From the NCBI GenBank assembly GCA_003635265.1, contig PYIZ01000010.1:258626-322625 (forward strand): a DNA stretch of 64,000 nt, in the 5' to 3' direction. The notes below the pieces were generated by a model. The model made no database searches. It was not told the DNA's origin and saw nothing but the letters and a program-made list of their open reading frames with translations. The translations under genes and the position numbers were made by a program. Below are positions 5,796 through 59,822 of this stretch, piece by piece. How positions within the stretch are numbered: the stretch's first letter is position 1; each line of letters begins with the position of its first letter. Origin of the DNA: Candidatus Poribacteria bacterium. GTDB taxonomy: Bacteria; Poribacteria; WGA-4E; PCPOR2b.

Positions 5796-7229
5796 TCACG
5801 CTAACTGTATTTCATACTTGCGAATATCACCTGTCTCTGGAGAGTAATATGCCTGATAAAACTTGAAATCGGTCCGATTCTTTTGCGCGCACTTTCTTTG
5901 AATGATGTCGATGATTTTTAATTTTTGCTCATCAGATGTCTTGAGTCCAAAAATAACGCCTGTCAGCGAGTTGAAGTCGTAGGTTAGTGCACGGTCCTTC
6001 TCATCGTCGAATTGCCTCAAGCCATCTTCTAGGATTAGGCGGCACTCCTGTTCATACTCCCAATCCTTGGTCTTAACAGTAATATCACGGTAGAAACTAC
6101 TCCAATGTCTTTCTCGCCAATCAACCATTTCATCGCTATCTATGTCACCATCAAGTGGAATATGGGAGGCGCATTCAGAACTATTGCCTACCTCATCAGT
6201 GTACCAATGTTCCTTTGCATCCTTACCTGTCAACCTGCCAATGGATCTGAAGAAGTCAACCTCGTCCGGTTTATCTGCATATCTTATCTCTGACAACCGT
6301 ATTGCTCTAGCGTTTTTACCTGTCTCGTAAAATAACTCTAAACCGTTAGAGTCGCCCATTGTTTTAGATGCAAAAATCAAGCATGCCCCCTTATGGTTAT
6401 CTGCATAATGCCCCCATACAGAGGAATTGTAGTAATATTTCATAAAGCAGGCGGTGTACCACTGAGGGCCAAGCAGTCTCTCAAGCTCTTTCAAATATAC
6501 CATGGGAAAATCGACAAACACTATTTGACGATTATTCCAATATTCTTCACTTGGAATCAGTTGTTTGTGTTGCTGAATAAACCTTTGGCTCTGAAGCCTG
6601 TTCCTATAATCTATCACTGCAATTTGCTGCAAGGCAATGTTAATTTTGTCCTCAGTACGTGCTTCGTCAAACGTTTTTATCGATTTAAGAATTGTTTCAC
6701 ATATGCGCCGTACCGATAATTCTTCAGCCAGCGGAGTCTCTTGAGATTCGGGTATACGGCCATGTGCAATATATGTGTCTATGATTTCAGGAAGAAAGAA
6801 TGGGTGTATCATTTGAAGATAAAATTTAAGCTCTATGTATCGGATTGGGCGATTTGAGTTTGACAGTGCTTCAATAATCTCTGGGATATATGGTAGGCTA
6901 GAAAACCTGTCCCAAACATCATTGAACAATCTGCGTGCGTCGGGAGTTGGCAGGTGATTCCAGCCGTATAGGATTGGAAGGCGACCTTGTTCGAATTCTT
7001 TAGAGCTCAGGGTTATTTCAGGTCCAAGACATCTTACATGCAGACAAAGAACGTAATTTTTAAAAAAATTAGTCCAGACAATCTTATCTCCTCTCCACAC
7101 AATATCCCGGAATCCTTCCATTGGATCATTTAGTTGGTCAGGACTAGCGAAATAGATTGTCTGTTTCTCAAGCTCTTGATATTCATCTCCTAACAGATAG
7201 TCCATGCTTCTGAATCTGTATAATTTCAT
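5796..7229 (-). CDS. DUF2971 family protein with ~200-aa insertion
   Basis: All three blocks I associate with DUF2971 are present: LYRFRS...IYFASPDQLNDPMEGF, SVWGHYADNHKGACLIF and KDWEYEQECRLIL. AGGAG is upstream of the ATG and a TTGACA hexamer (minus strand, 7266-7271) lies in the 52-nt gap after modC. Confidence 0.75.
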   Translation of the reverse strand: MKLYRFRSMDYLLGDEYQELEKQTIYFASPDQLNDPMEGFRDIVWRGDKIVWTNFFKNYVLCLHVRCLGPEITLSSKEFEQGRLPILYGWNHLPTPDARRLFNDVWDRFSSLPYIPEIIEALSNSNRPIRYIELKFYLQMIHPFFLPEIIDTYIAHGRIPESQETPLAEELSVRRICETILKSIKTFDEARTEDKINIALQQIAVIDYRNRLQSQRFIQQHKQLIPSEEYWNNRQIVFVDFPMVYLKELERLLGPQWYTACFMKYYYNSSVWGHYADNHKGACLIFASKTMGDSNGLELFYETGKNARAIRLSEIRYADKPDEVDFFRSIGRLTGKDAKEHWYTDEVGNSSECASHIPLDGDIDSDEMVDWRERHWSSFYRDITVKTKDWEYEQECRLILEDGLRQFDDEKDRALTYDFNSLTGVIFGLKTSDEQKLKIIDIIQRKCAQKNRTDFKFYQAYYSPETGDIRKYEIQLA

Positions 7230-22702: not shown

Positions 22703-23857
22703 CTACACACCTGCCTCTGACTTCAGCAGGTCTGCATAGTCCGTCAATTCCCATGTGAAGCCCGGCTCTTCACGTCCGAAATGCCCATAAGCCGCTGTGG
22801 CTGAGTAAATCGGTCTCCGGAGTTCAAGACGCTCAATAATCCCAGCCGGTGTCAGATCGAAATGCTTCGTCACAAGCTGCGTCAGTTTCTCATCGGGGAC
22901 TGTGCCTGTGCCAAAAGTATCGAGCATAATCGAGATCGGTTCAACAACACCAATGGCATAAGAGAGCTGGACTTCACATTGATCTGCCAATCCGGCAGCA
23001 ACGATGTTTTTCGCAACGTGCCTTGCCGCATACGCAGCGCTCCGATCTACCTTCGTCGGATCTTTGCCAGAAAATGCCCCGCCACCGTGCCTGCCCATGC
23101 CTCCATAAGTGTCAGCAATAATTTTTCGACCCGTTAATCCACAATCGCCTTGCGGTCCCCCGACAACGAAACGCCCCGTCGGATTGACATGGTAGGTGAT
23201 GTCAGATTGCTTTTGACGCAATTCGTCAGGAATGACAGGTTTGATAATTTCTTCGATGACGGCTTCTCTTAAATCTTCATTCGTAACTTCCGGATCATGC
23301 TGCGTCGAAATCACAACAGTATCAATACTTACAGGTTGTCCGTCGGCATATTCAACTGTTACCTGCGACTTGCCATCGGGCCTTAGGAAGTCCAATATAC
23401 CCTCTTTCCGTAACTGTGCAAGCCGGTGTGTCAGTCTATGCGCCAATATAATCGGCATTGGCATCAGTTCTGGAGTCTCGCGGCAAGCATAGCCGAACAT
23501 CATCCCCTGATCGCCGGCGCCGAGCCGATCCACACCCATTGCAATATCCGCTGATTGCTCGTCAATTGCAGTCAACAACGCGCAGTGTTCATAGTCAAAT
23601 CCGTAAGTCGCCCTAATGTAGCCAACCTGTTGGATAGTGTGCCGGACGAGTGCGGGAATATCAATGAAGTTCGCTGAGGTCGTCATTTCACCAGTAATGA
23701 GTGCCAGTCCGGTTGTTACCAACGTTTCGCAGGCGACACGCCCCATCGGATCCTCTTCCATAACCGCGTCAAGCACGGCATCAGAAATCTGATCTGCAAG
23801 TTTATCGGGATGTCCTTCAGTTACAGATTCAGATGTAAATACATAGTTTTGAGCCAA
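22703..23857 (-). CDS. metK: S-adenosylmethionine synthetase
   Basis: [25 protein letters not shown] and [16 protein letters not shown] motifs. It uses a TTG start with AGGAGA 7 nt upstream. Confidence 0.95.
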
Positions 23858-32028: not shown

Positions 32029-32526
32029 ATGCCAGACGACCACACATCAGCCGAAGATCAACAAGTCGAAGCCGAAGGACAAACACCGGAAACAGAAACA
32101 TTAGCACAATTGCAAGAACTTGCCGAAAGTGGCAACCCCGCAGCCCAAAATGACCTCGGTTGGATGTATCAAAACGGTAGGGGTGTAGTGCAAGATGACA
32201 GAGAGGCAATTAAGTGGTATCGAAAAGCTGCCGAACAAGATTATGCCATAGCCCAAGACAACCTCGGTTGGATGTATCAACACGGCAGAGGTGTCCCGCA
32301 AGACGATGAGAAAGCAGTTAAATGGTATCGAAAAGCCGCTGAGGATGGCAATCTTGCAAAAGCTCAAGACAACCTTGGTTGGATGTACCAACATGGCAGA
32401 GGTGTCCCGCAAGACGATGTAGAGGCGGTCAAATGGTTTCGCAAAGCTGCTGAAGGTGGTTATTCCGCGGCCCAAGCTAATCTTGACTGGATGTATCAAA
32501 ATGGTAGGGGCGTTGAGCAGGTATAG
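32029..32526 (+). CDS. Sel1-like repeat (SLR) protein
   Basis: Four tandem units of AQxNLGWMYQxGRGVPQDDxxAVKWYRKAAExG. Confidence 0.85.
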   Translation: MPDDHTSAEDQQVEAEGQTPETETLAQLQELAESGNPAAQNDLGWMYQNGRGVVQDDREAIKWYRKAAEQDYAIAQDNLGWMYQHGRGVPQDDEKAVKWYRKAAEDGNLAKAQDNLGWMYQHGRGVPQDDVEAVKWFRKAAEGGYSAAQANLDWMYQNGRGVEQV

Positions 32527-32527
32527 A

Positions 32528-32608
32528 TTAATTCACGCCCAACCTACTCCCACTCCCGAATATCCACAAAATGCCCAGCCAGCGCAGTCCCCGCAGCCAT
32601 CTGCAATT
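32528..32608 (-). pseudogene. duplicated remnant of the leuC 3' end (last ~20 codons plus stop and 16 nt downstream)
   Basis: About 85% nucleotide identity to 33427-33506. On the minus strand it translates to [19 protein letters not shown], versus authentic Leu[20 protein letters not shown]. Confidence 0.7.
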
Positions 32609-33122: not shown

Positions 33123-33196
33123 ACGTAAGTCCTGTAGTTCGGCGATTCATCGCCATAGAATACCGTTTCCCACGCCCGATGAATCGGGCAACTACA
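33123..33196. repeat. TGTAG...CTACA palindromic element preceded by CGTAAGTCC
   Basis: The 64-nt core at 33133-33196 is TGTAGTTCGGCGATTCATCGCC...GCCCGATGAATCGGGCAACTACA. It has the same hairpins as 20584-20647 in the opposite order. Confidence 0.65.
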
Positions 33197-33313
33197 ATAT
33201 TCATCGGGATCCTTAATAAGTTGGGACTAGTCTCGATTGCTAGCCCGCCGTGATCCAGCCAATAATCCGTGCAATCTGCGGTATCCGTTTAATCCGCGAT
33301 TCAGACAAATGGC

Positions 33314-33384
33314 ACATGTCGCCCCTCTGGGGCTTGGAAGGAGGGACCTATTGCCCGGCTATAGACATATCGCCCCTCTGGGGC
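33314..33384 (+). repeat. paired 20-nt hairpin motif (51-nt spacing)
   Basis: ACATGTCGCCCCTCTGGGGC at 33314-33333 and ACATATCGCCCCTCTGGGGC at 33365-33384. This is the counterpart of 4667-4737. Confidence 0.55.
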
Positions 33385-33440
33385 TAAATGGATCGATGCA
33401 CAGGCTTGATGTATTCAGATGTAGTTGAATTCACCTCAAC

Positions 33441-34844
33441 CTACTTCCACTTCCGAATATCGACAAAATGCCCAGCAATCGCGGCACCCGCAGCCATTTG
33501 CGGACTGACAAGATGCGTCCGTCCACCCTTACCCTGTCTGCCCTCAAAGTTCCGATTCGACGTGCTAGCACACCGCTCACCCGGCATCAGGATATCCGGA
33601 TTCATACCGAGACACATACTACAGCCAGACTCACGCCACTCAAATCCCGCTGCACGGAAAATCTCGTCCAAACCTTCCGCCTCCGCCTGTCGCTTGACCG
33701 CCTGTGATCCCGGCACAACGAGCGCGTTCACCGTCGGAGCAACCTTGCGTCCCTTGGCAATCTCAGCAGCCACGCGCAGATCGTCAATTCGAGAATTGGT
33801 ACAACTCCCGATGAACACCTTATCGATCTGAATTTCCTCAATCGGCGTCAGTGGCTTCAGGTCCATATATTCTAATGCGTGTTCTGCTGCCTGTTTCTCA
33901 TCTTGGGTCGGCATCTTATCCGGATCCGGCACCTGTCCGGTTACCTCAGTCACCATCCCCGGATTCGTCCCCCACGTCACTTGAGGTACCAGCGTCGCAG
34001 CATCAATGGCAATTGACTTATCGTAGACCGCCCCCTCATCCGTCGGTAACTGTTTCCACTTTTCAACCGCCTGATCAAACGCCTCACCCTGTGGACAAAA
34101 ATCACGTCCCGCGAGATATTCGTAAGTCTTATCATCAGGCGCAATCATGCCAGCACGCGCACCCGCTTCAATGGACATATTGCAGACCGTCATCCGCTCC
34201 TCAACGCTCAACGCCCGAATGGCAGATCCAGTGTATTCGACCACTGTGCCCGTGCCCCCAGCGGTCCCGATCCTGCCGATAATCCCCAGAATAATGTCCT
34301 TTGCGGTAACACCACGCCCCAATTTCCCATCAACCTCAATCTTGAAGGTCTGCGGACGCTGCTGCAAAAGGCACTGGGTCGCCAATACATGCTCCACCTC
34401 ACTGGTCCCAATACCGATGGCAAGGGCACCCAACGCCCCATGCGTTGAAGTATGGCTGTCCCCACAAACGATCGTCTTCCCCGGTTGCGTGATACCGAGC
34501 TCAGGTCCAATCACATGCACGATGCCCTGATTGGGGCTATGAAGGTCATACAACGTGATGCCAGTCTCTTCACAATTCTGTGCCAATACCTCCATCTGCT
34601 TGGAGGCAATCTCATCCAGGATCGGGAGGGTTCGATCGGTCGTCGGCACATTGTGATCCATCGTTGCAAAAGTCAGATCTGGGCGGCGCACCTTCCGCCC
34701 CGCGAGCCGGAGCCCTTCAAACGCCTGTGCAGAGGTAATTTCGTGAACGAGATGTGTATCAATATAGAGTATCGTTGTTTCGCCCGGTATTTCGTGGACG
34801 ATGTGTGCATCCCAAATCTTTTCAAACATCGTTTTCGGTGTCAT
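33441..34844 (-). CDS. leuC: 3-isopropylmalate dehydratase large subunit
   Basis: 467 aa, aconitase family. MFEKIWDAH..., VCGDSHT and GSCTNSR cluster-ligand motifs are present. No leuD is adjacent. Confidence 0.9.
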
Positions 34845-52979: not shown

Positions 52980-54041
52980 ATGGAAGAATGGAAAAAACTC
53001 GTTCGGGATACGGTCAATACACCTGAAAAACTTGCTGCTATCTTCGATGTCGATCTCGACGAGATAAAGCGCGTTCACGACGTATTTCCTATCCGTATTA
53101 ATCCCTACTATTTGAGCCTGATCGAGGAGCCGGGAGACCCGATCTGGAAACAGGTTGTCCCAGATCCAAAAGAACTGATCCGAACCGGATTTGAGGAAGA
53201 TGACCCACTCGGCGAAGAGGATGATAGCCTCGTACCCAACGTCACACATCGTTATCCGGATCGGGTATTGTTTTATGTCAACTACATGTGCCCGATCTAC
53301 TGCCGATTCTGCACCCGAAAACGCAAAGTCGGAGATCCGGACTCCATTCCCGACAACAATATCGAGATGGGTTTGGACTATATCCGCAGTCACCCCGAAA
53401 TTCGCGACGTCATCATCTCCGGCGGTGATTCGATGATGCTGACGGATCGGAAAATTGATTATATTGTCGGCAGCCTCCGTGACATCGAGCACCTCGAAAT
53501 CATCCGAATCGGTTCGCGCGTACCCGTTACCTTGCCACAACGTATCACGCCGGAGTTATGCGCAATCCTCAAGCAGTACCACCCTTTTTATATTAACACC
53601 CACTTCAACCACCCCCGCGAAGTTACGCCGGAAACCGAGAAAGCGTGCGGCATGTTGGTAGATGCCGGTATCCCTGTCGGCAATCAGGCTGTCCTGCTCA
53701 GAGGCGTCAACGACGATCCCACAGTCATGGTTGATTTGATGAAGAAACTCCTCAAAATCCGCGTCAGACCCTACTATATCTATCAGGCAGACCTCGTTTA
53801 CGGAACAGATCACTTCCGCACATCGATCAAAACAGGACTGGAAATTGTCTCCGCATTGCGCGGACACATTTCTGGGCTCGGCGTGCCGCACTATGTGGTT
53901 GATGCACCCGGCGGTGGTGGTAAAATTGCTCTCATCCCAGATCCAGTCGTGTCGTTTGATGATGAGGAGATTCGGTTGAAAAACTACGAGGGGAACACCT
54001 ACAGCTATCCAAGTACCTCCTTCTATGATGAAGATTGGTAG
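52980..54041 (+). CDS. KamA-family radical SAM enzyme (lysine 2,3-aminomutase-like)
   Basis: CPIYCRFCTRK (CxxxCxxC) and the N-terminal PYYLSLI...DPIWKQVVP typical of KamA/EpmB. Confidence 0.85.
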   Translation: MEEWKKLVRDTVNTPEKLAAIFDVDLDEIKRVHDVFPIRINPYYLSLIEEPGDPIWKQVVPDPKELIRTGFEEDDPLGEEDDSLVPNVTHRYPDRVLFYVNYMCPIYCRFCTRKRKVGDPDSIPDNNIEMGLDYIRSHPEIRDVIISGGDSMMLTDRKIDYIVGSLRDIEHLEIIRIGSRVPVTLPQRITPELCAILKQYHPFYINTHFNHPREVTPETEKACGMLVDAGIPVGNQAVLLRGVNDDPTVMVDLMKKLLKIRVRPYYIYQADLVYGTDHFRTSIKTGLEIVSALRGHISGLGVPHYVVDAPGGGGKIALIPDPVVSFDDEEIRLKNYEGNTYSYPSTSFYDEDW

Positions 54042-54199
54042 GATTTCAGAACCTGTTTAAAAAAGAAAACAGCTCTCACTCCCTAAGCCAGACATCTTGC
54101 CCACCACCACGAACAGGAAACAAACCCAACCCCGTAGGCGGGGCATCTTGCCCCGCCACGCTATGTCATCATAACCTTCCAAACAGGTTAGTAGATAAT

Positions 54200-54423
54200 A
54201 GGAGTTACGCAGTTCAGTTTGTAGTAGCACAATTCATTGCGCGTCCGGACGGGCGATAAATCCCTCTACTACAAACCTAAGACCTGACTGTAGTTGCCCG
54301 CCTGTCCCGATAATTCGGGGATTCATCGGGCGTTTGAAATGGTGTCCTGTGGCGATGAATAGTCGAACTAAAAATCGAAGACTCTCGGAACGGAGGGTTT
54401 GAGCGTTCAAGTGCATAAGTCCT
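54200..54423. repeat. cluster of two TGTAG...CTACA-type elements plus flanking CTGCGTAAsTCCT / ATAAGTCCT motifs
   Basis: Variant core at 54220-54273 (TGTAGTAG...CTACTACA). Core at 54289-54372 is the TGTAGTTGCCCG... type with a ~20-nt internal insertion and a degenerate right arm. A GGCGGGGCA-TCT-TGCCCCGCC hairpin lies just upstream, near 54128-54148. Confidence 0.6.
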
Positions 54424-54440
54424 AAGATAAATCAAATCCC

Positions 54441-54671
54441 ATGAAAAAAGAACAGATTATCACATGCGATAAAGAAATAGTCAGCGGAACGCCCGTCTTT
54501 GCCGGTACGCGTGTGCCCGTCGCAATACTGATTGACTATCTTAAAGCAGGGGATTCCTTGGAGCGTTTTCTGGAGGGCTTTCCTACAGTCAAGCGTGCAC
54601 AAGCCATCGCTTTTTTAGACATGGCTCTCGAAGCTGCCCTGACGGAGAACCCTAGTGCGCGTGCTGCTTGA
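54441..54671 (+). CDS. DUF433-family antitoxin-like protein
   Basis: ITCDKEIVSGTPVFAGTRVPVAILIDYLKAGDSLERFLEGFPTV is the canonical DUF433 pattern. Confidence 0.75.
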   Translation: MKKEQIITCDKEIVSGTPVFAGTRVPVAILIDYLKAGDSLERFLEGFPTVKRAQAIAFLDMALEAALTENPSARAA

Positions 54672-54942
54672 TGAAAACATAGACCGTTTCTTGAAATCTC
54701 TATTCGCTTCTGATATGGAGGTATTCACCGTCCGTGAGCAGGGTTGGACAAGCATGGAGAACGGTAGATTACTGCGTGTAGCACAGCATGAATTTGATGT
54801 TTTGGTCACGATGGACAAGAATTTGGAACACCAGCAGAACCTAAATGTGATCAATATGGGTATCGTCGTGATTCGAGTCGCAGATTTTCACTGGTATTCA
54901 AGATCTTGTTTGGATTGTCATAAAAAGCCCTGCGAAATATGA
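54655..54942 (+). CDS. DUF5615-family (PIN-like) toxin-like protein
   Basis: VRVLLDENIDRFL...DVLVTMDKNL is typical of DUF5615. A GTG start overlaps the DUF433 stop by 17 nt. Confidence 0.7.
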   Translation: MRVLLDENIDRFLKSLFASDMEVFTVREQGWTSMENGRLLRVAQHEFDVLVTMDKNLEHQQNLNVINMGIVVIRVADFHWYSRSCLDCHKKPCEI

Positions 54943-55415
54943 AAAAAACTATGGCTTGGAGCTGTTACGTTTTTACTAGTTTTTCCTCTATTCCTGCCCA
55001 TAGGGATAGCGAGCGATGTTCCTTTTGCAGATGTTCCGTTTGATGTTAACAACATCCCAGAACCCGTGCTGCCCCCAAAGGAAGTCCGTGATTTCTTTGA
55101 GCTAGACCCATATTACCAACAATGGATAAATGTCGGAGGATTTCCTGTCCTCGCGTCAGCAGAGGTCAGCCCTTATACTGTAAAAGAAGCGGCATGGACT
55201 ATCGGGCACATGGTCGGACATCGTCCGGATATTCTAAAGGTAATGGCACAAAACAAAGCACGTTTTTCCATAGTTCCTCATAACAAACATCTCCCTGACA
55301 TTCCCGAATATGACCTTGGTAGACTCGATTTTTTTGGGAGATGCGTGCTCGCGGTATAGGTGGTTTGACGACGACTTCGCCTGAGGAAAATATAATCGCT
55401 CATGTTAAGATTTAG
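54939..55415 (+). pseudogene. degraded secreted-protein gene (two homopolymer frameshifts, 3' truncated)
   Basis: ATG at 54939 is followed by an A7 run. One fewer A would give MKKLWLGAVTFLLVFPLFLPIGIA, a signal peptide in frame with the 55066 ORF. At the T7 run (55329-55335) one extra T would continue ...DFFWEMRARGIGGLTTTSPEENII. The reading then ends at 55413-55415. Confidence 0.55.
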
Positions 55416-55478
55416 TGCAAAGAAACCGAGTTTTCAAGAAAAAACTCGGTTTCTCTGAGTGCTTTGCACTTTCTTTTT
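55414..55478 (+). terminator. long hairpin plus T-tract
   Basis: AGTGCAAAGAAACCGAGTTTT-CAAG-AAAAAACTCGGTTTCTCTGAGTGCTTTGCACT followed by TTCTTTTT. Confidence 0.55.
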
Positions 55479-55512
55479 ACATGAGCCTTTCCGCTATACG
55501 GCGGATGTTGAT

Positions 55513-55578
55513 ACTCAAGTAATGGGCAAAATCATTCTCAAAGGCATTTGATTTCATGAATATCACGGCGTCGCAGAA
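55513..55578 (+). pseudogene. duplicated remnant of the folB 5' end
   Basis: About 86% identity to 58205-58270. It reads MGKIILKGI* versus authentic FolB MDKIILKGIGFHGYHGVVE, with an in-frame TGA. Confidence 0.7.
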
Positions 55579-55583
55579 TAATA

Positions 55584-58214
55584 ATGGGTACAAACCTGCT
55601 GACAAAACAATGCTTTCAGTTCATCCCCATTTTCACAAGGGGCTGCCTTTTCTTGTGGATTTCTCTCGTGGCGGGGGCACTTCTCCCACAGATTGTTGAT
55701 GCCCAAAATTATCAAGATTATCAGACCTGGAGTTTACCCCATGGCGCGATTGCTCGCTTGGGAAAAGGGCGCGTTAAGAGTATTGCCTTTTCGCCCGATG
55801 GCTCACGCCTTGCTGTGGTAACCTTTATTGGCGCCTGGCTTTACGATGTGGAGACGGGGCGTGAACGGGCACTACTCACCGGGCATATGGGTGCGTTTGC
55901 GTTTATAGTGTTTTCACCCGACAGTACAAAAATTGCATCAACGGGGGAGGCCGGTAAGACAATCCAACTGTGGGATGTTTCGACCGGACGAAACATCGCT
56001 ACACTCAAAGGGCATACGGGGATAATTAACTCTATTGCATTTTCGCCTGACAGCACCAAAATCGTATCGGGGGCACGGGATGTCATACTCTGGGATACTG
56101 CGACGGGCAAACAGATCGCTGCGCCCATAGAACAGAGGGATTATTCGGTATCGGAGGTAGCGTTTTCACCCGATGGCACAAAAATCGCATCAGGGATAGG
56201 AGGGGAAATTAAGCTGTGGGACGTTGCGGCGGGGGACAACATCGCCACGCTCAAAGGGCATACGCGCCGGATCAATTCGGTGGTGTTTTCGCCCAATGGC
56301 ACAAAAGTCGCGTCAGCGTCAGAGGAAGATATTAAGCTGTGGGACGTAGGGACAGGGGGCAATATCGCCACACTCCAAGAGCCTAACGGACGGATCTACG
56401 CTGTGGTATTTTCACCTGACGGTACTATTCTCGCATCAAGGGCTCATCGGCACGGGTTCGGTCCTAGTGACGAGATAGTTAAGCTGTGGGATGTTTCAAC
56501 TGGTCAACACATCGCTACGCTTGAAGAACATGAAACACGGTCCCTGCCTATGGCATTTTCGCCCGATGGTACAAAACTCGCATGGGGATCATGGGAAGAG
56601 ATCAAACTATGGGATGTAGAAACCAAAAAAAACATTGATACACTACGGGGACATACGTGGATAGTCAGAACTATAGCATTTTCGCCCGATGGTACAAAAC
56701 TCGCATCGGGGTCATGGGATAGACTCCGCGAAGAAGGAGAGATTAAACTGTGGGATGTTGCAAACAGACAAAACATTGCCATACTCCACGGGCATACGAG
56801 GGAAATCCAATCTGTGATGTTTTCACCCAACGGCACAAAACTCGCCTCAAAGTCAGGGGAAGAGGTCAAATTGTGGGAGGTAGGGACAGGGCGAAACATT
56901 GACACGCTCCACGGGCATACGGGGGGAGTCCAATCTGTCGTGTTTTCGCCCGACGGCACAAAACTCGCATCGGAGGCTTATGATGAAGAGATTAAACTGT
57001 GGGACGTAGGGACAGGATACAACATCGCCACGTTAGAAGGATATACGAGACCAGCGTTTTCGCCTGACAGCACAAAAATCGCATCGTGGGGAGAGTTAGG
57101 GGTGAACCTGTGGGAGGTGGAGACAGGACGAAATATCGCCACGTTACAGGCGCATACGGATGGTGGGGCTGTTGTAGTGTTTTCGCCCGATGGTGCCCTC
57201 CTCGCATCGGGGTCTTATGATACAAGAGTTAAACTGTGGGATGTAGAGACAGGACGAAATATCACTACCCTACCTGTTACGGGGCGGGTCACTTCTGTGG
57301 CATTTTCGCCTGATGGCACAATAGTCGCTTCAGGGGCAAGCAACTCCAGCAGGGAAGGGGAACTCAAGCTGTGGGACGTAGAGACAGGACAAAACATCGC
57401 TGCGCTAGACAAGTTTCCGAATGCGGTCTATTCTGTGGCATTTTCGCCCGACGGCACCATCATTGCGTCGGGGTCTGATGATGAAGTAGTTGAACTATGG
57501 GAGGTAGAAACAGGACGCCACATCAAAACACTAAGAGAAAATGGGGATGAGGTTAGGGTTGTGGCGTTTTCGCCCGATGGTACGAAAATCGTATCATTAT
57601 CATTGCAAGCGGTCAAACTATGGGAGGTTTCGACCGGCCAAGATATCGTCACCCTAAAGAATCAGTGGACAGATCATGTCGCATTTTCGCCCGACAGCAC
57701 CATACTCGCATTGGGATCCAGGTTAGCGGTGAACCTGTTGGATGTAGAGACGGGACGAATCATCGCCACACTGCCCGGGCACGGGGGATTTGTCAACGAC
57801 GTAGCGTTTTCACCAAATGGCACAAAACTCGCATCGGGAGCGGGGGATGGAACAATTCTGCTGTGGGATATGTCGCCGTACCTCACACCTGTCCCATTGC
57901 CTTTTCAACGGCCGAACGTGACAGAAACGGCACTATTGCAAAACTATCCTAACCCGTTCAACCCGGAAACTTGGATTCCTTACCAACTCGCCAACGACAC
58001 CGATGTGCAGATTGCAATCTACGATACCAAAGGCACATTAGTGCGTCGATTAGATCTGGGGCATCAGAAGGCGGGCTTCTACACCTATCAGACAAAGGCA
58101 GCGTATTGGGACGGATGGAACGAAATTGGGGAATCGGTTGCAGCTGGAGTGTATTTCTACACGCTGACGACCGATGACTATACCGCAACTCGTAAGATGG
58201 TTATTCTCAGGTAA
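55584..58214 (+). CDS. secreted WD40 repeat protein (about 17 blades) with T9SS-type/FlgD-Ig-like C-terminal sorting domain
   Basis: Signal peptide ending VDAQ. There are 17 recurrences of (V/I)AFSP(D/N)G(T/S)K(I/L)AS...(I/V)KLWDV. The C-terminal NYPNPFNPETWIPYQL...IYDTKGTLVRRL...GVYFYTLTTDDYTATRKMVILR is typical of Por-secretion CTDs. Confidence 0.9.
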   Translation: MGTNLLTKQCFQFIPIFTRGCLFLWISLVAGALLPQIVDAQNYQDYQTWSLPHGAIARLGKGRVKSIAFSPDGSRLAVVTFIGAWLYDVETGRERALLTGHMGAFAFIVFSPDSTKIASTGEAGKTIQLWDVSTGRNIATLKGHTGIINSIAFSPDSTKIVSGARDVILWDTATGKQIAAPIEQRDYSVSEVAFSPDGTKIASGIGGEIKLWDVAAGDNIATLKGHTRRINSVVFSPNGTKVASASEEDIKLWDVGTGGNIATLQEPNGRIYAVVFSPDGTILASRAHRHGFGPSDEIVKLWDVSTGQHIATLEEHETRSLPMAFSPDGTKLAWGSWEEIKLWDVETKKNIDTLRGHTWIVRTIAFSPDGTKLASGSWDRLREEGEIKLWDVANRQNIAILHGHTREIQSVMFSPNGTKLASKSGEEVKLWEVGTGRNIDTLHGHTGGVQSVVFSPDGTKLASEAYDEEIKLWDVGTGYNIATLEGYTRPAFSPDSTKIASWGELGVNLWEVETGRNIATLQAHTDGGAVVVFSPDGALLASGSYDTRVKLWDVETGRNITTLPVTGRVTSVAFSPDGTIVASGASNSSREGELKLWDVETGQNIAALDKFPNAVYSVAFSPDGTIIASGSDDEVVELWEVETGRHIKTLRENGDEVRVVAFSPDGTKIVSLSLQAVKLWEVSTGQDIVTLKNQWTDHVAFSPDSTILALGSRLAVNLLDVETGRIIATLPGHGGFVNDVAFSPNGTKLASGAGDGTILLWDMSPYLTPVPLPFQRPNVTETALLQNYPNPFNPETWIPYQLANDTDVQIAIYDTKGTLVRRLDLGHQKAGFYTYQTKAAYWDGWNEIGESVAAGVYFYTLTTDDYTATRKMVILR

Positions 58215-58582
58215 TGGACAAGATCATTCTCAAAGGCATTGGATTTCACGGCTATCACGGCGTTGTAGAAGCAGAGCGTCATATTGGGCAAAAGTATGAA
58301 ATAGATCTTGAGTTGACAACTGATCTCTCTGCCGCCGGCACAAGCGATGACCTCACTCACACAATCGACTACGCCCAAGTTGTCCAGTTGGCAATCAAAA
58401 TTGGAACCCAGCAGTCCTTCCGACTCTTTGAAGCCCTCGCCGAAGCGATTGCGGCGGCAATCCTCGATCAATTCCAAATCGAAGAAGTTCGCATTGCGGT
58501 CAAAAAATTATCTCCTCCCATCGAGCCAACACTCAGCTACGCAGGCGTTGAGATCCATAGGAAGCGAAAATCAGATGGATAA
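58214..58582 (+). CDS. folB: dihydroneopterin aldolase
   Basis: 122 aa. GFHGYHGVVEAERHIGQKYEIDLEL...DDLTHTIDYAQV is typical FolB. The ATG overlaps the WD40 stop (TAATG). Confidence 0.85.
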   Translation: MDKIILKGIGFHGYHGVVEAERHIGQKYEIDLELTTDLSAAGTSDDLTHTIDYAQVVQLAIKIGTQQSFRLFEALAEAIAAAILDQFQIEEVRIAVKKLSPPIEPTLSYAGVEIHRKRKSDG

Positions 58583-59822
58583 ACCAACGCCTGTTTTTCA
58601 TGCCATAATTTTCTTGTGCTTCCTTCTGATCACCAGTCGAACCGTCATAGCAAGCGATGCGGCTTCCTCGCCACTGAATCCCAATTCAACGCGCACAGAT
58701 ATGTTCGACGATTTGCATCCGGGCCTCCAAGTCTATCGGTACGACTGGCATGAGGAAGGGTGTGTCCTTTATGTGGCCGAAATGGACCGTTTTCACACGG
58801 ACCTCCATTTTGAAACGGCAATTGCCAACAACCAGATCTTAGGCAAGGAAACCGTCAGATCTATCGCAGATCGACGTTCGCAGCGCGGAGACCGCCGTGT
58901 CTTAGTTGCCATCAACGGTGGATTTGGTGTTCTCGGTGATATGAAAGGATACGGCGGCGCGTTAGAAAATCTACACATCCAAGCCGGGGAGTTGATGACC
59001 CAGCCTGCGTCGGATAAAGAGGCGTGTTTCGGTGTGACGTCGGACGGTGACTTTCTGATTGGTCCCCTTGAAATGCAAGCCACCGTAACGGTGGGAACAT
59101 ATAGTGTCCCGCTTGGGTGCATCAACCAGAGATTTCTCGATGGTTGCGAATCTATCCTCTATACGCCCCGCATGGGCGACTCGACACACACGAACCGTAG
59201 GCGGGCTTATGAAATTATTCTGACCGGACTCCAGTTACCAATCACAGGCAAATACCAAAGCGACTTCATCGTTGATCAGTTTGGAAAAGGTGGAAACAAC
59301 CCAATCCCTGAAAACGGTGCGGTCATTTCCTTCCGCTCACGAATTGATCAACAGTTGGAAGCACAGTTAGACGCGGGCAAGGGTGGCAAGATCGAAATAC
59401 GGCTCGAACCAGCTGTCTGGAATCGTACAATTCAAGCAATCGGCGGTCGAATCCGACTTGTGAAAAATGGGCGAGTCAACGAAATCATCGAAAAACATCA
59501 CCGTGCTCAGAAAAAGCATACGCCTGGCAAGCGACAGCGCGACTTGGCACTGAGCTATGAACCCCGCACTGCTCTCGGTTACAACGCACAGAAATTGATC
59601 TTAATTGTGGCAGACGGACGACGGGCGGGTTATAGTACGGGGTTATCCCTATATCGGCTCGCAAGCCTCCTTATTGAACTCGGCGCCACAGAAGCCATCA
59701 ATTTGGATGGAGGATCATCAAGCACTTTCGTTGTCGATGGAAAAGTTGTCAATCGTCCCTCCGGCCAGAGTGAACGTGATGTCCTCAATGCCGTTCTTAT
59801 CACGGCGGATCAATCCCAATAA
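58575..59822 (+). CDS. phosphodiester glycosidase family protein (DUF2233/NAGPA-like), secreted
   Basis: The start was trimmed to MDKPTPVFHAIIFLCFLLITS (signal). The C-terminal AINLDGGSSSTFVVDGKVVNRPS is the family hallmark. Confidence 0.7.
   Translation: MDKPTPVFHAIIFLCFLLITSRTVIASDAASSPLNPNSTRTDMFDDLHPGLQVYRYDWHEEGCVLYVAEMDRFHTDLHFETAIANNQILGKETVRSIADRRSQRGDRRVLVAINGGFGVLGDMKGYGGALENLHIQAGELMTQPASDKEACFGVTSDGDFLIGPLEMQATVTVGTYSVPLGCINQRFLDGCESILYTPRMGDSTHTNRRRAYEIILTGLQLPITGKYQSDFIVDQFGKGGNNPIPENGAVISFRSRIDQQLEAQLDAGKGGKIEIRLEPAVWNRTIQAIGGRIRLVKNGRVNEIIEKHHRAQKKHTPGKRQRDLALSYEPRTALGYNAQKLILIVADGRRAGYSTGLSLYRLASLLIELGATEAINLDGGSSSTFVVDGKVVNRPSGQSERDVLNAVLITADQSQ

Follow-up and report, generated by a model that had tools for sequence, protein, structure and literature searches.

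A diverged second folB start in a Candidatus Poribacteria genome as the probable scar of a join between two versions of a variable gene slot

In a 64,000-nucleotide (nt) stretch of a Candidatus Poribacteria genome (contig PYIZ01000010.1 of assembly GCA_003635265.1, positions 258,626 to 322,625; hereafter the window), the dihydroneopterin aldolase gene folB is preceded by a second, truncated copy of its own 5' end, and an intact WD40 repeat gene lies between the two copies. We find that the copies belong to two different versions, which we call A and W, of the interval between folB and kamA, a gene resembling lysine-2,3-aminomutase. The repeat probably marks one illegitimate join between the A and W versions, made by recombination with DNA of a related lineage in a manner resembling homology-facilitated illegitimate recombination (HFIR); on the sequence comparisons presented here, we place the probability of this reading at about 0.6. 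The source genome (G000) is a 5.3-Mb metagenome-assembled genome (MAG) of 53 contigs, with a completeness of 88% and a contamination of 4%. We compared it with 19 congeneric Candidatus Poribacteria genomes and with G022, a genome from another genus; the folB loci of the relatives (L039-L058) were aligned with the folB ATG at position 2001 (alignment A3).

Two gene junctions in series

The two copies (55491-55578 and 58183-58270) form a direct repeat of 88 nt with 80% identity, as determined by a repeat finder and by pairwise alignment. Counted from the ATG, 49 of the 57 positions in the folB part match (86%), as given in a first-pass annotation of the window, which had added about 8 nt of upstream similarity; the homology extends 31 nt 5' of the ATG. 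In each copy, a gene for a secreted protein with a C-terminal sorting domain (CTD) contributes its last 10 codons and its stop, and folB contributes its start; stop and start overlap as TAATG. The repeat is a copy of this whole gene junction, beyond the folB 5' end alone. Read in frame, the CTD tails are AIRRMLILK* in the upstream copy and ATRKMVILR* in the downstream copy; with 10 differences in 31 nt, they represent two types of gene. The longest exact run between the copies, ~20 nt in the ATCATTCTCAAAGGCATT region, might act as the core of an attachment site, but it falls in what is also the most conserved part of folB. Other readings of the first pass agree with ours: the upstream copy gives MGKIILKGI and then TGA, the WD40 open reading frame (ORF) ends in MVILR and a TAA that overlaps the folB ATG, and the downstream copy is the real start of folB. 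In our analysis, this folB carries the FolB domain and is the sole one in the genome.

When the region of the upstream copy was compared with the whole 5.3-Mb genome by BLAST, the folB copy was returned at E=1.7e-16, which rules out a chance match as the origin of the repeat, and no further copy was found. A decayed folB paralogue can also be dismissed: folB is single-copy in each genome searched. Within the 64-kb window, the only two-copy repeats of this gene-end type are the folB pair and a pair at leuC, to which we return below.

The relatives show where the two junctions come from. The order kamA ... folB-NAGPA-RidA is kept in all 19 congeners, and the kamA-folB interval is different in almost every one; it forms a variable slot that comes in at least two gene versions. 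In type A (kamA, in some cases a toxin-antitoxin (TA) pair, a CTD gene, folB), the gene that abuts folB encodes a protein with leucine-rich repeats (LRR), Big and dockerin domains. Type W has the order kamA, WD40-CTD gene, folB, and remnants of its WD40 gene abut folB in two species. An intact type-A gene, in G002, encodes a 1005-aa LRR/Big_1/dockerin/CTD protein that has the same start as a remnant in the window, ends in SATRRMVILK and is joined to folB as TAATG. G019 has the same tail/TAATG/folB junction as G002, G009 has a type-A gene with an internal deletion, and G003 and G007 have short type-A tail remnants only. For type W, G013 (OZ244042.1) has a collapsed WD40 orthologue with kamA and folB as its immediate neighbours. 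The 5' part of this orthologue (upstream region, signal peptide, first blade) has 76% identity to 55604-55939 and the 3' part (last blade, CTD) 81% to 57807-58300; the remnant starts ~80 nt 3' of the kamA stop. In G016, only the tail of the W type is left, fused to folB as TAATG. Both genomes are free of any stub, and from their junctions it follows that the W-folB version exists independently of the arrangement in the window.

With these references, the upstream copy is identified as the orthologue of the type-A junction (89% identity to G019 over 94 nt, 87% to G002) and the downstream copy as the type-W junction. The window therefore reads, in order, kamA, the TA pair, a dead A gene (N-terminal remnant, a transposable-element-like repeat, tail), 57 nt of folB, the W spacer, the W gene and the intact folB.

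Two side observations concern the slot in relatives. The G013 WD40 orthologue retains only its first and last blades and its CTD, with frame breaks, and this collapse apparently arose by recombination between WD40 repeat units. The overlap of CTD stop and folB start persists in many congeners, even where the CTD gene is cut to 5-67 codons, and a CTD tail is likewise fused to folB as TAATG in G022; other congeners have a palindromic repeat (GCCCCGTCTACGGGGG...) before folB.

The joint and a possible route to it

The folB homology of the upstream copy ends at 55578 in every relative compared, W sequence runs from 55579, and homology to the G013 kamA-WD40 spacer begins by ~55596-55604. One flank is thus homologous and the other junction non-homologous, as in HFIR. 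A conserved block, AAATTATC, lies 127 nt from the joint in the window and 138 nt from the kamA stop in G013, with a 5-nt indel, and these distances put the joint within ~15 nt of the position of the kamA stop in the W version. Because of this position, the W-derived piece corresponds to the entire variable part of the kamA-W-folB version; the A-derived piece comprises the entire variable part of the kamA-TA-A-folB version and, beyond it, 57 nt of folB. We considered and rejected the idea that the 17 nt after the joint are a diverged kamA 3' end, the match of ~9 of 15 positions being not significant. The outer flanks (kamA and the body of folB) are syntenic with those of relatives and ~86-90% identical to them.

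Polarised against the 19 relatives, the 57 nt of folB hold five changes private to the stub, among them a three-base cluster and the change of codon 10 from CGA to TGA, four changes private to the functional copy and no shared derived change. The divergence of the stub from its partner, 14-20%, equals the between-species value; between species, whole-region DNA identity is ~86%, and third-codon positions differ by 21-39%. At 89% identity to G019, the stub appears too similar to have drifted freely through the whole history of the lineage and seems to have been non-functional for part of it. Taken together, the low decay of the stub, its divergence from its partner and the independent existence of the two versions make a join of already diverged versions more likely than duplication in place.

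We infer that such a join came about by recombination and that one of the two copies is foreign. DNA of one version would have recombined with a chromosome bearing the other, at one end through a normal homologous crossover within a conserved flank and at the other through a non-homologous join of nt 57 of the A-version folB to a point adjoining the kamA stop of the W version. In an alternative form of the same event, the two versions may have been co-resident in a transient merodiploid and joined unequally. The product would be both versions in series, and the 88-nt "duplication" would be the A-version junction left 5' of the W-version junction.

Two directions can be envisaged. A W fragment could have been anchored in folB, with its far end attached to nt 57 of folB in an A-type chromosome; or an A fragment anchored in kamA and ending 57 nt into folB could have been joined just past the kamA stop of a W-type chromosome. 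The second direction would account both for the position of the joint, at the end of the anchor, and for the shortness of stubs; a longer overlap with folB would have permitted clean homologous replacement without a scar. The position of the stub at a gene end would itself be a consequence of one-sided homologous recombination. The incoming DNA may have been W or, equally, the dead type-A segment, inserted 5' of a resident WD40-folB pair, and the earlier view of the WD40 gene as the newcomer is accordingly not established. The companion proposal, that an insertion duplicated or carried the folB start, stands in part: the junction is of the insertion type and one side has its own folB start, but duplication at the time of insertion is disfavoured by the absence of shared derived changes and by the different tails.

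The hallmarks of mobile elements are absent. The repeat finder returned 0 pairs of inverted repeats in 54500-59500, and neither the ORF list nor Pfam gave a recombinase gene in the insert (55579-58182), in which a single WD40/CTD ORF occupies the full length and leaves no room for one. Where a transposition would leave a short (2-14 bp) identical target-site duplication, the repeat is 88 nt long at 80% identity. Insertion of a transposon, an insertion sequence or a miniature inverted-repeat transposable element (MITE) was rejected for want of terminal inverted repeats and of a short identical target duplication. Tandem duplication was rejected as well, since the sequence between the copies is not itself a copy of adjacent sequence and the WD40 gene has no second copy.

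Stubs elsewhere and the weighing of rival explanations

The leuC pair has a similar anatomy. Between its copies lie ~810 nt that hold a MazE/AbrB-type gene and two dispersed repeats, and each copy has four to five private changes and no shared derived change. The first-pass view that leuC follows the same junction logic as folB is borne out by G001 and G002, in which a single leuC 3' end directly follows the SEL1-repeat gene. The two repeats in the leuC insert (33127-33199, ~72 nt; 33250-33401, ~140 nt) adjoin the MazE/AbrB-type gene and occur in dozens of copies in every congener.

The genome-wide search for further duplicated gene ends that had been suggested with the first pass was carried out as a self-comparison and returned 41 local two-copy repeats of 40-220 nt. 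In ~8-10 of them, one copy lies at a gene end and the other is displaced over a distance of 0.9-5 kb; most of these pairs are 82-88% identical. A third case is found on contig C27 of the source genome (20821-20981 / 23166-23335), where a gene for a 674-aa Kef-type transporter is flanked by a 170-nt stub with 84% identity to the 3' end of its neighbour. Stub and insert are also present in G007, a single-contig genome, and in G001, assembled in three contigs, and the site is empty in G002, G013 and G003. Because this structure occurs in G007 and G001, stub-insert arrangements are real features of well-assembled genomes and can be old. Further candidates were listed on contigs C29, C37, C38, C44 and C53. 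A locus on C34 (10600-16000), in which the stub of the 5' end of a gene for a 121-aa membrane protein lies 5' of a 1263-aa gene, was rejected as a case of the same kind; it is a decayed tandem paralogue, and the locus in relatives has two or three tandem modules of a small and a large gene. On C37, 99-nt direct repeats with 85% identity (932-1030 / 6085-6183) flank 5 kb of phage-like ORFs at the 3' end of a 288-aa gene, and these repeats are possibly a true attL/attR pair.

The recurrence that the first pass had proposed therefore holds in the sense that stubs recur, at leuC and, as a third case, at C27. Active targeting of gene termini has left no sign: the search for a recombinase, inverted repeats, a short identical target duplication or a joint motif common to the cases was negative. 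The arrangement at folB is most likely the scar of ordinary gene exchange at a variable slot and not the work of a new insertion machine.

Among other explanations, we weighed a duplication made in place, in which a WD40 cassette inserted at folB nt 57 and duplicated 57-88 nt, or a tandem duplication was later remodelled, so that the copies were identical at the outset. We regard this as unlikely at folB, even though a direct repeat does flank an insert and the stub and functional copy at C27, in a structure common to three species, share states that are absent from empty-site genomes. Copies of a single junction should not carry the tails of two gene types (10 of 31 nt differ), each matching different relatives, nor lack any shared derived change when the functional copy has four of its own. 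The W tail-TAATG-folB junction, moreover, pre-exists in the stub-less G013 and G016, and the stub is too little decayed for the age that a 14-20% divergence from its partner would imply. The local MITE family makes duplications of ~8 bp, not 88 nt, and we know of no insertion mechanism that yields 88-nt target duplications.

An error of assembly, in which contigs of co-occurring A-type and W-type populations were joined in series, has to be considered for a MAG of this completeness and contamination, and the divergence of the copies does equal that between species. We hold it to be quite improbable: graph assemblers join contigs at shared exact words, which would give one hybrid folB and not two in series; there is no shared sequence at 55578/55579; both flanks give the same ranking of identity to relatives; and the same kind of stub and insert is present at another locus in the single-contig G007 and the three-contig G001. 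Also highly improbable is the remnant of a site-specific integrative element that targeted the folB 5' end, brought a replacement start in its attachment site and has since lost its integrase. At three loci, a displaced terminus beyond the insert and an intact gene do recall an attL/attR picture, and the 5-kb phage-like region on C37 with its 99-nt repeats (85%) offers a possible precedent; yet the 2.7-kb insert at folB is one WD40 gene without a recombinase, the same gene is an ordinary chromosomal neighbour of kamA in G013, the joints of the three cases have no motif in common, and the copies share no long identical core, their longest exact run being ~20 nt.

Several results weigh against our preferred account, a one-sided join between the A and W versions. 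Its arguments from divergence are based on 57-94 nt and give support, not proof. Neither the joint nor a W-specific block was matched in scans of public metagenome contigs, and a pattern scan of the genome collection found G013 only, with no donor and no single-version strain of this species. A search for homologues of the WD40 protein returned distant paralogues only (best 44-56% aa identity), with Candidatus Poribacteria among their sources, and no donor. Compared by segment, the body of folB is no closer to G013 and G016 than to A-type species and shows no sign of import, in a genus whose tree is nearly star-like, which limits the resolution of such tests. The C27 stub, common to three species and ~85% identical between them, indicates that stubs can be long-lived, and that locus may represent an old duplication in place.

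Related systems and features of the window

HFIR has been described in naturally transformable Acinetobacter baylyi, Pseudomonas stutzeri and Streptococcus pneumoniae. As at folB, homology is confined to one side, the other end is joined non-homologously near the anchor, and integrase, inverted repeats and short target duplications are absent; the addition of foreign DNA beside a conserved gene without mobile-element machinery would be a further likeness. Our case differs in that two versions of the same locus are joined and that the foreign end would have carried a piece of the next conserved gene, giving a diverged "duplication". Integrative elements that carry a substitute gene end, such as lambdoid phage 21 and e14 in icd of Escherichia coli, leave the target gene intact and a slightly different displaced terminus at the far end, with duplicates of tens to hundreds of bases, which is also the picture at folB. 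Unlike them, the folB locus has no recombinase, long identical core or element boundaries, and its insert is the normal slot gene of another species. The slot also resembles variable gene slots (replacement islands), which are exchanged by homologous recombination in their flanks, in having different genes or remnants between syntenic flanks in nearly all 20 congeners; here, by contrast, the replacement would be incomplete, with both versions in series and a stub of the flank between them.

No new mobile element or targeting mechanism is revealed by this locus, which adds one more case to a known kind of event. It does show the turnover of accessory secreted-protein genes (WD40, LRR) beside housekeeping genes in an uncultivated lineage of sponge symbionts, and the stub of a conserved gene end, if short and diverged, could serve as a signature for spotting one-sided recombination between species in MAGs. 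A broader and, at present, doubtful idea is that stubs form a systematic record of failed version replacements between Poribacteria species. Each would stem from an incomer, ~14% off the resident, whose second arm was too short for a crossover, with the CTD-tail/TAATG/folB joint and the CTD-coding 3' ends, ~75% identical among dozens of paralogues, acting as recombination handles; if this is true, secreted-protein genes are swapped like cassettes.

Table 1. Coordinates of the features at the kamA-folB slot and of the leuC pair (positions in the window)
Feature	Position	Strand	Remarks
Displaced leuC 3' end and spacer	32521..32604	-	Contiguous with SEL1 gene, as in relatives
Functional leuC 3' end and ~22 nt spacer	33417..33501	-	Partner of the displaced copy
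kamA-like lysine-2,3-aminomutase gene	52980..54041	+	Pfam LAM_C, Radical_SAM; syntenic in all congeners inspected; conserved left border of slot
DUF433/DUF5615 gene pair	54441..54942	+	Inside slot; Pfam
Type-A gene, N-terminal remnant	54883..55396	+	Secreted LRR/Big/dockerin/CTD; includes open piece 55066-55359
MITE-like dispersed repeat, 92-93 nt	55396..55488	+	Inverted ends GCTCATGT...ACATGAGC; exactly at the joint of the type-A internal deletion
Type-A gene tail	55491..55522	+	Last 10 codons (AIRRMLILK) and TAA; aligns with G019/G002 tails SATRRM[LV]ILK*
folB 5' stub	55522..55578	+	First 57 nt of folB; codon 10 CGA-to-TGA stop, three-base change cluster
Probable illegitimate joint	55578..55579	.	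folB nt 57 (A version) / near kamA stop position of W version
WD40 upstream region	55579..55652	+	W-derived, aligned with G013; likely ribosome-binding site AAGGGG
WD40 repeat gene, intact	55584..58214	+	876 aa from first ATG; signal peptide and C-terminal sorting domain
CTD of WD40 protein	57870..58214	+	Pfam FlgD_ig, Por_Secre_tail
Downstream repeat copy	58183..58270	+	WD40 tail (ATRKMVILR*) and first 57 nt of functional folB; repeat finder, alignment
folB, intact	58214..58582	+	Dihydroneopterin aldolase; Pfam FolB 1.1e-34; sole folB in genome
NAGPA-family phosphodiester glycosidase gene	58575..59822	+	Pfam; synteny in relatives; conserved right side of slot

The type-A gene of the window was inactivated separately, by an internal deletion of ~2.7 kb with the MITE at its joint. 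Its N-terminal remnant has 89% DNA identity to a segment of G004 that lies ~4.3 kb upstream of the G004 folB, the homology stopping at 55396, and the encoded protein matches the N-terminus of the intact 1005-aa gene of G002. The source genome contains 24 full-length members of this MITE-like family, most of them bordered by ~8-bp direct repeats, and the copies in other species are 91-95% identical, compared with a genome background of ~86%. The copy in the window sits at the deletion joint without a flanking target-site duplication, which points to a MITE-associated deletion. An internal hairpin plus T-run within this copy was the sole noteworthy feature of a promoter and terminator scan in which counts were otherwise at chance level, and an Rfam scan of 54000-55700 gave chance-level matches only.

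The WD40 protein matches WD40 and other beta-propeller families in Pfam, and ~16 repeat units are visible in the DNA. Its C-terminus scores 41.1 bits for FlgD_ig and 34.6 bits for Por_Secre_tail, with a cut-off of 27 for each; "type IX secretion system (T9SS)-type", as applied to this protein, is the name of the C-terminal domain only. Its best paralogue in the source genome has 45% protein identity, and exact-protein look-ups of the WD40 protein and of FolB matched no records. The start of the gene is likely to be the in-frame TTG at 55653, preceded by AAGGGG, as these align with the ATG and the AGGAGAG of the WD40 remnant in G013. The first pass had the gene fill the interval between the repeats exactly; with a start at the TTG, it would not. 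For annotation, the WD40 start should probably be set at TTG 55653, and the stub at 55522-55578 should be left out of the gene calls. The TTG lies within a hairpin (55632-55659).

Upstream in the slot, a dispersed repeat of ~180 nt (54196-54374) is abundant in every congener, its copies being 78-92% identical. The DUF433/DUF5615 genes are read, from their domains, as a putative TA pair. The pair has 93% DNA identity to a copy that adjoins kamA in G007, and it is found in G016 too. Over 54425-54877, the identity to the G007 and G012 copies is 92-93%, against 80-88% for the flanking genes in the same genomes, which may reflect recent exchange or strong conservation.

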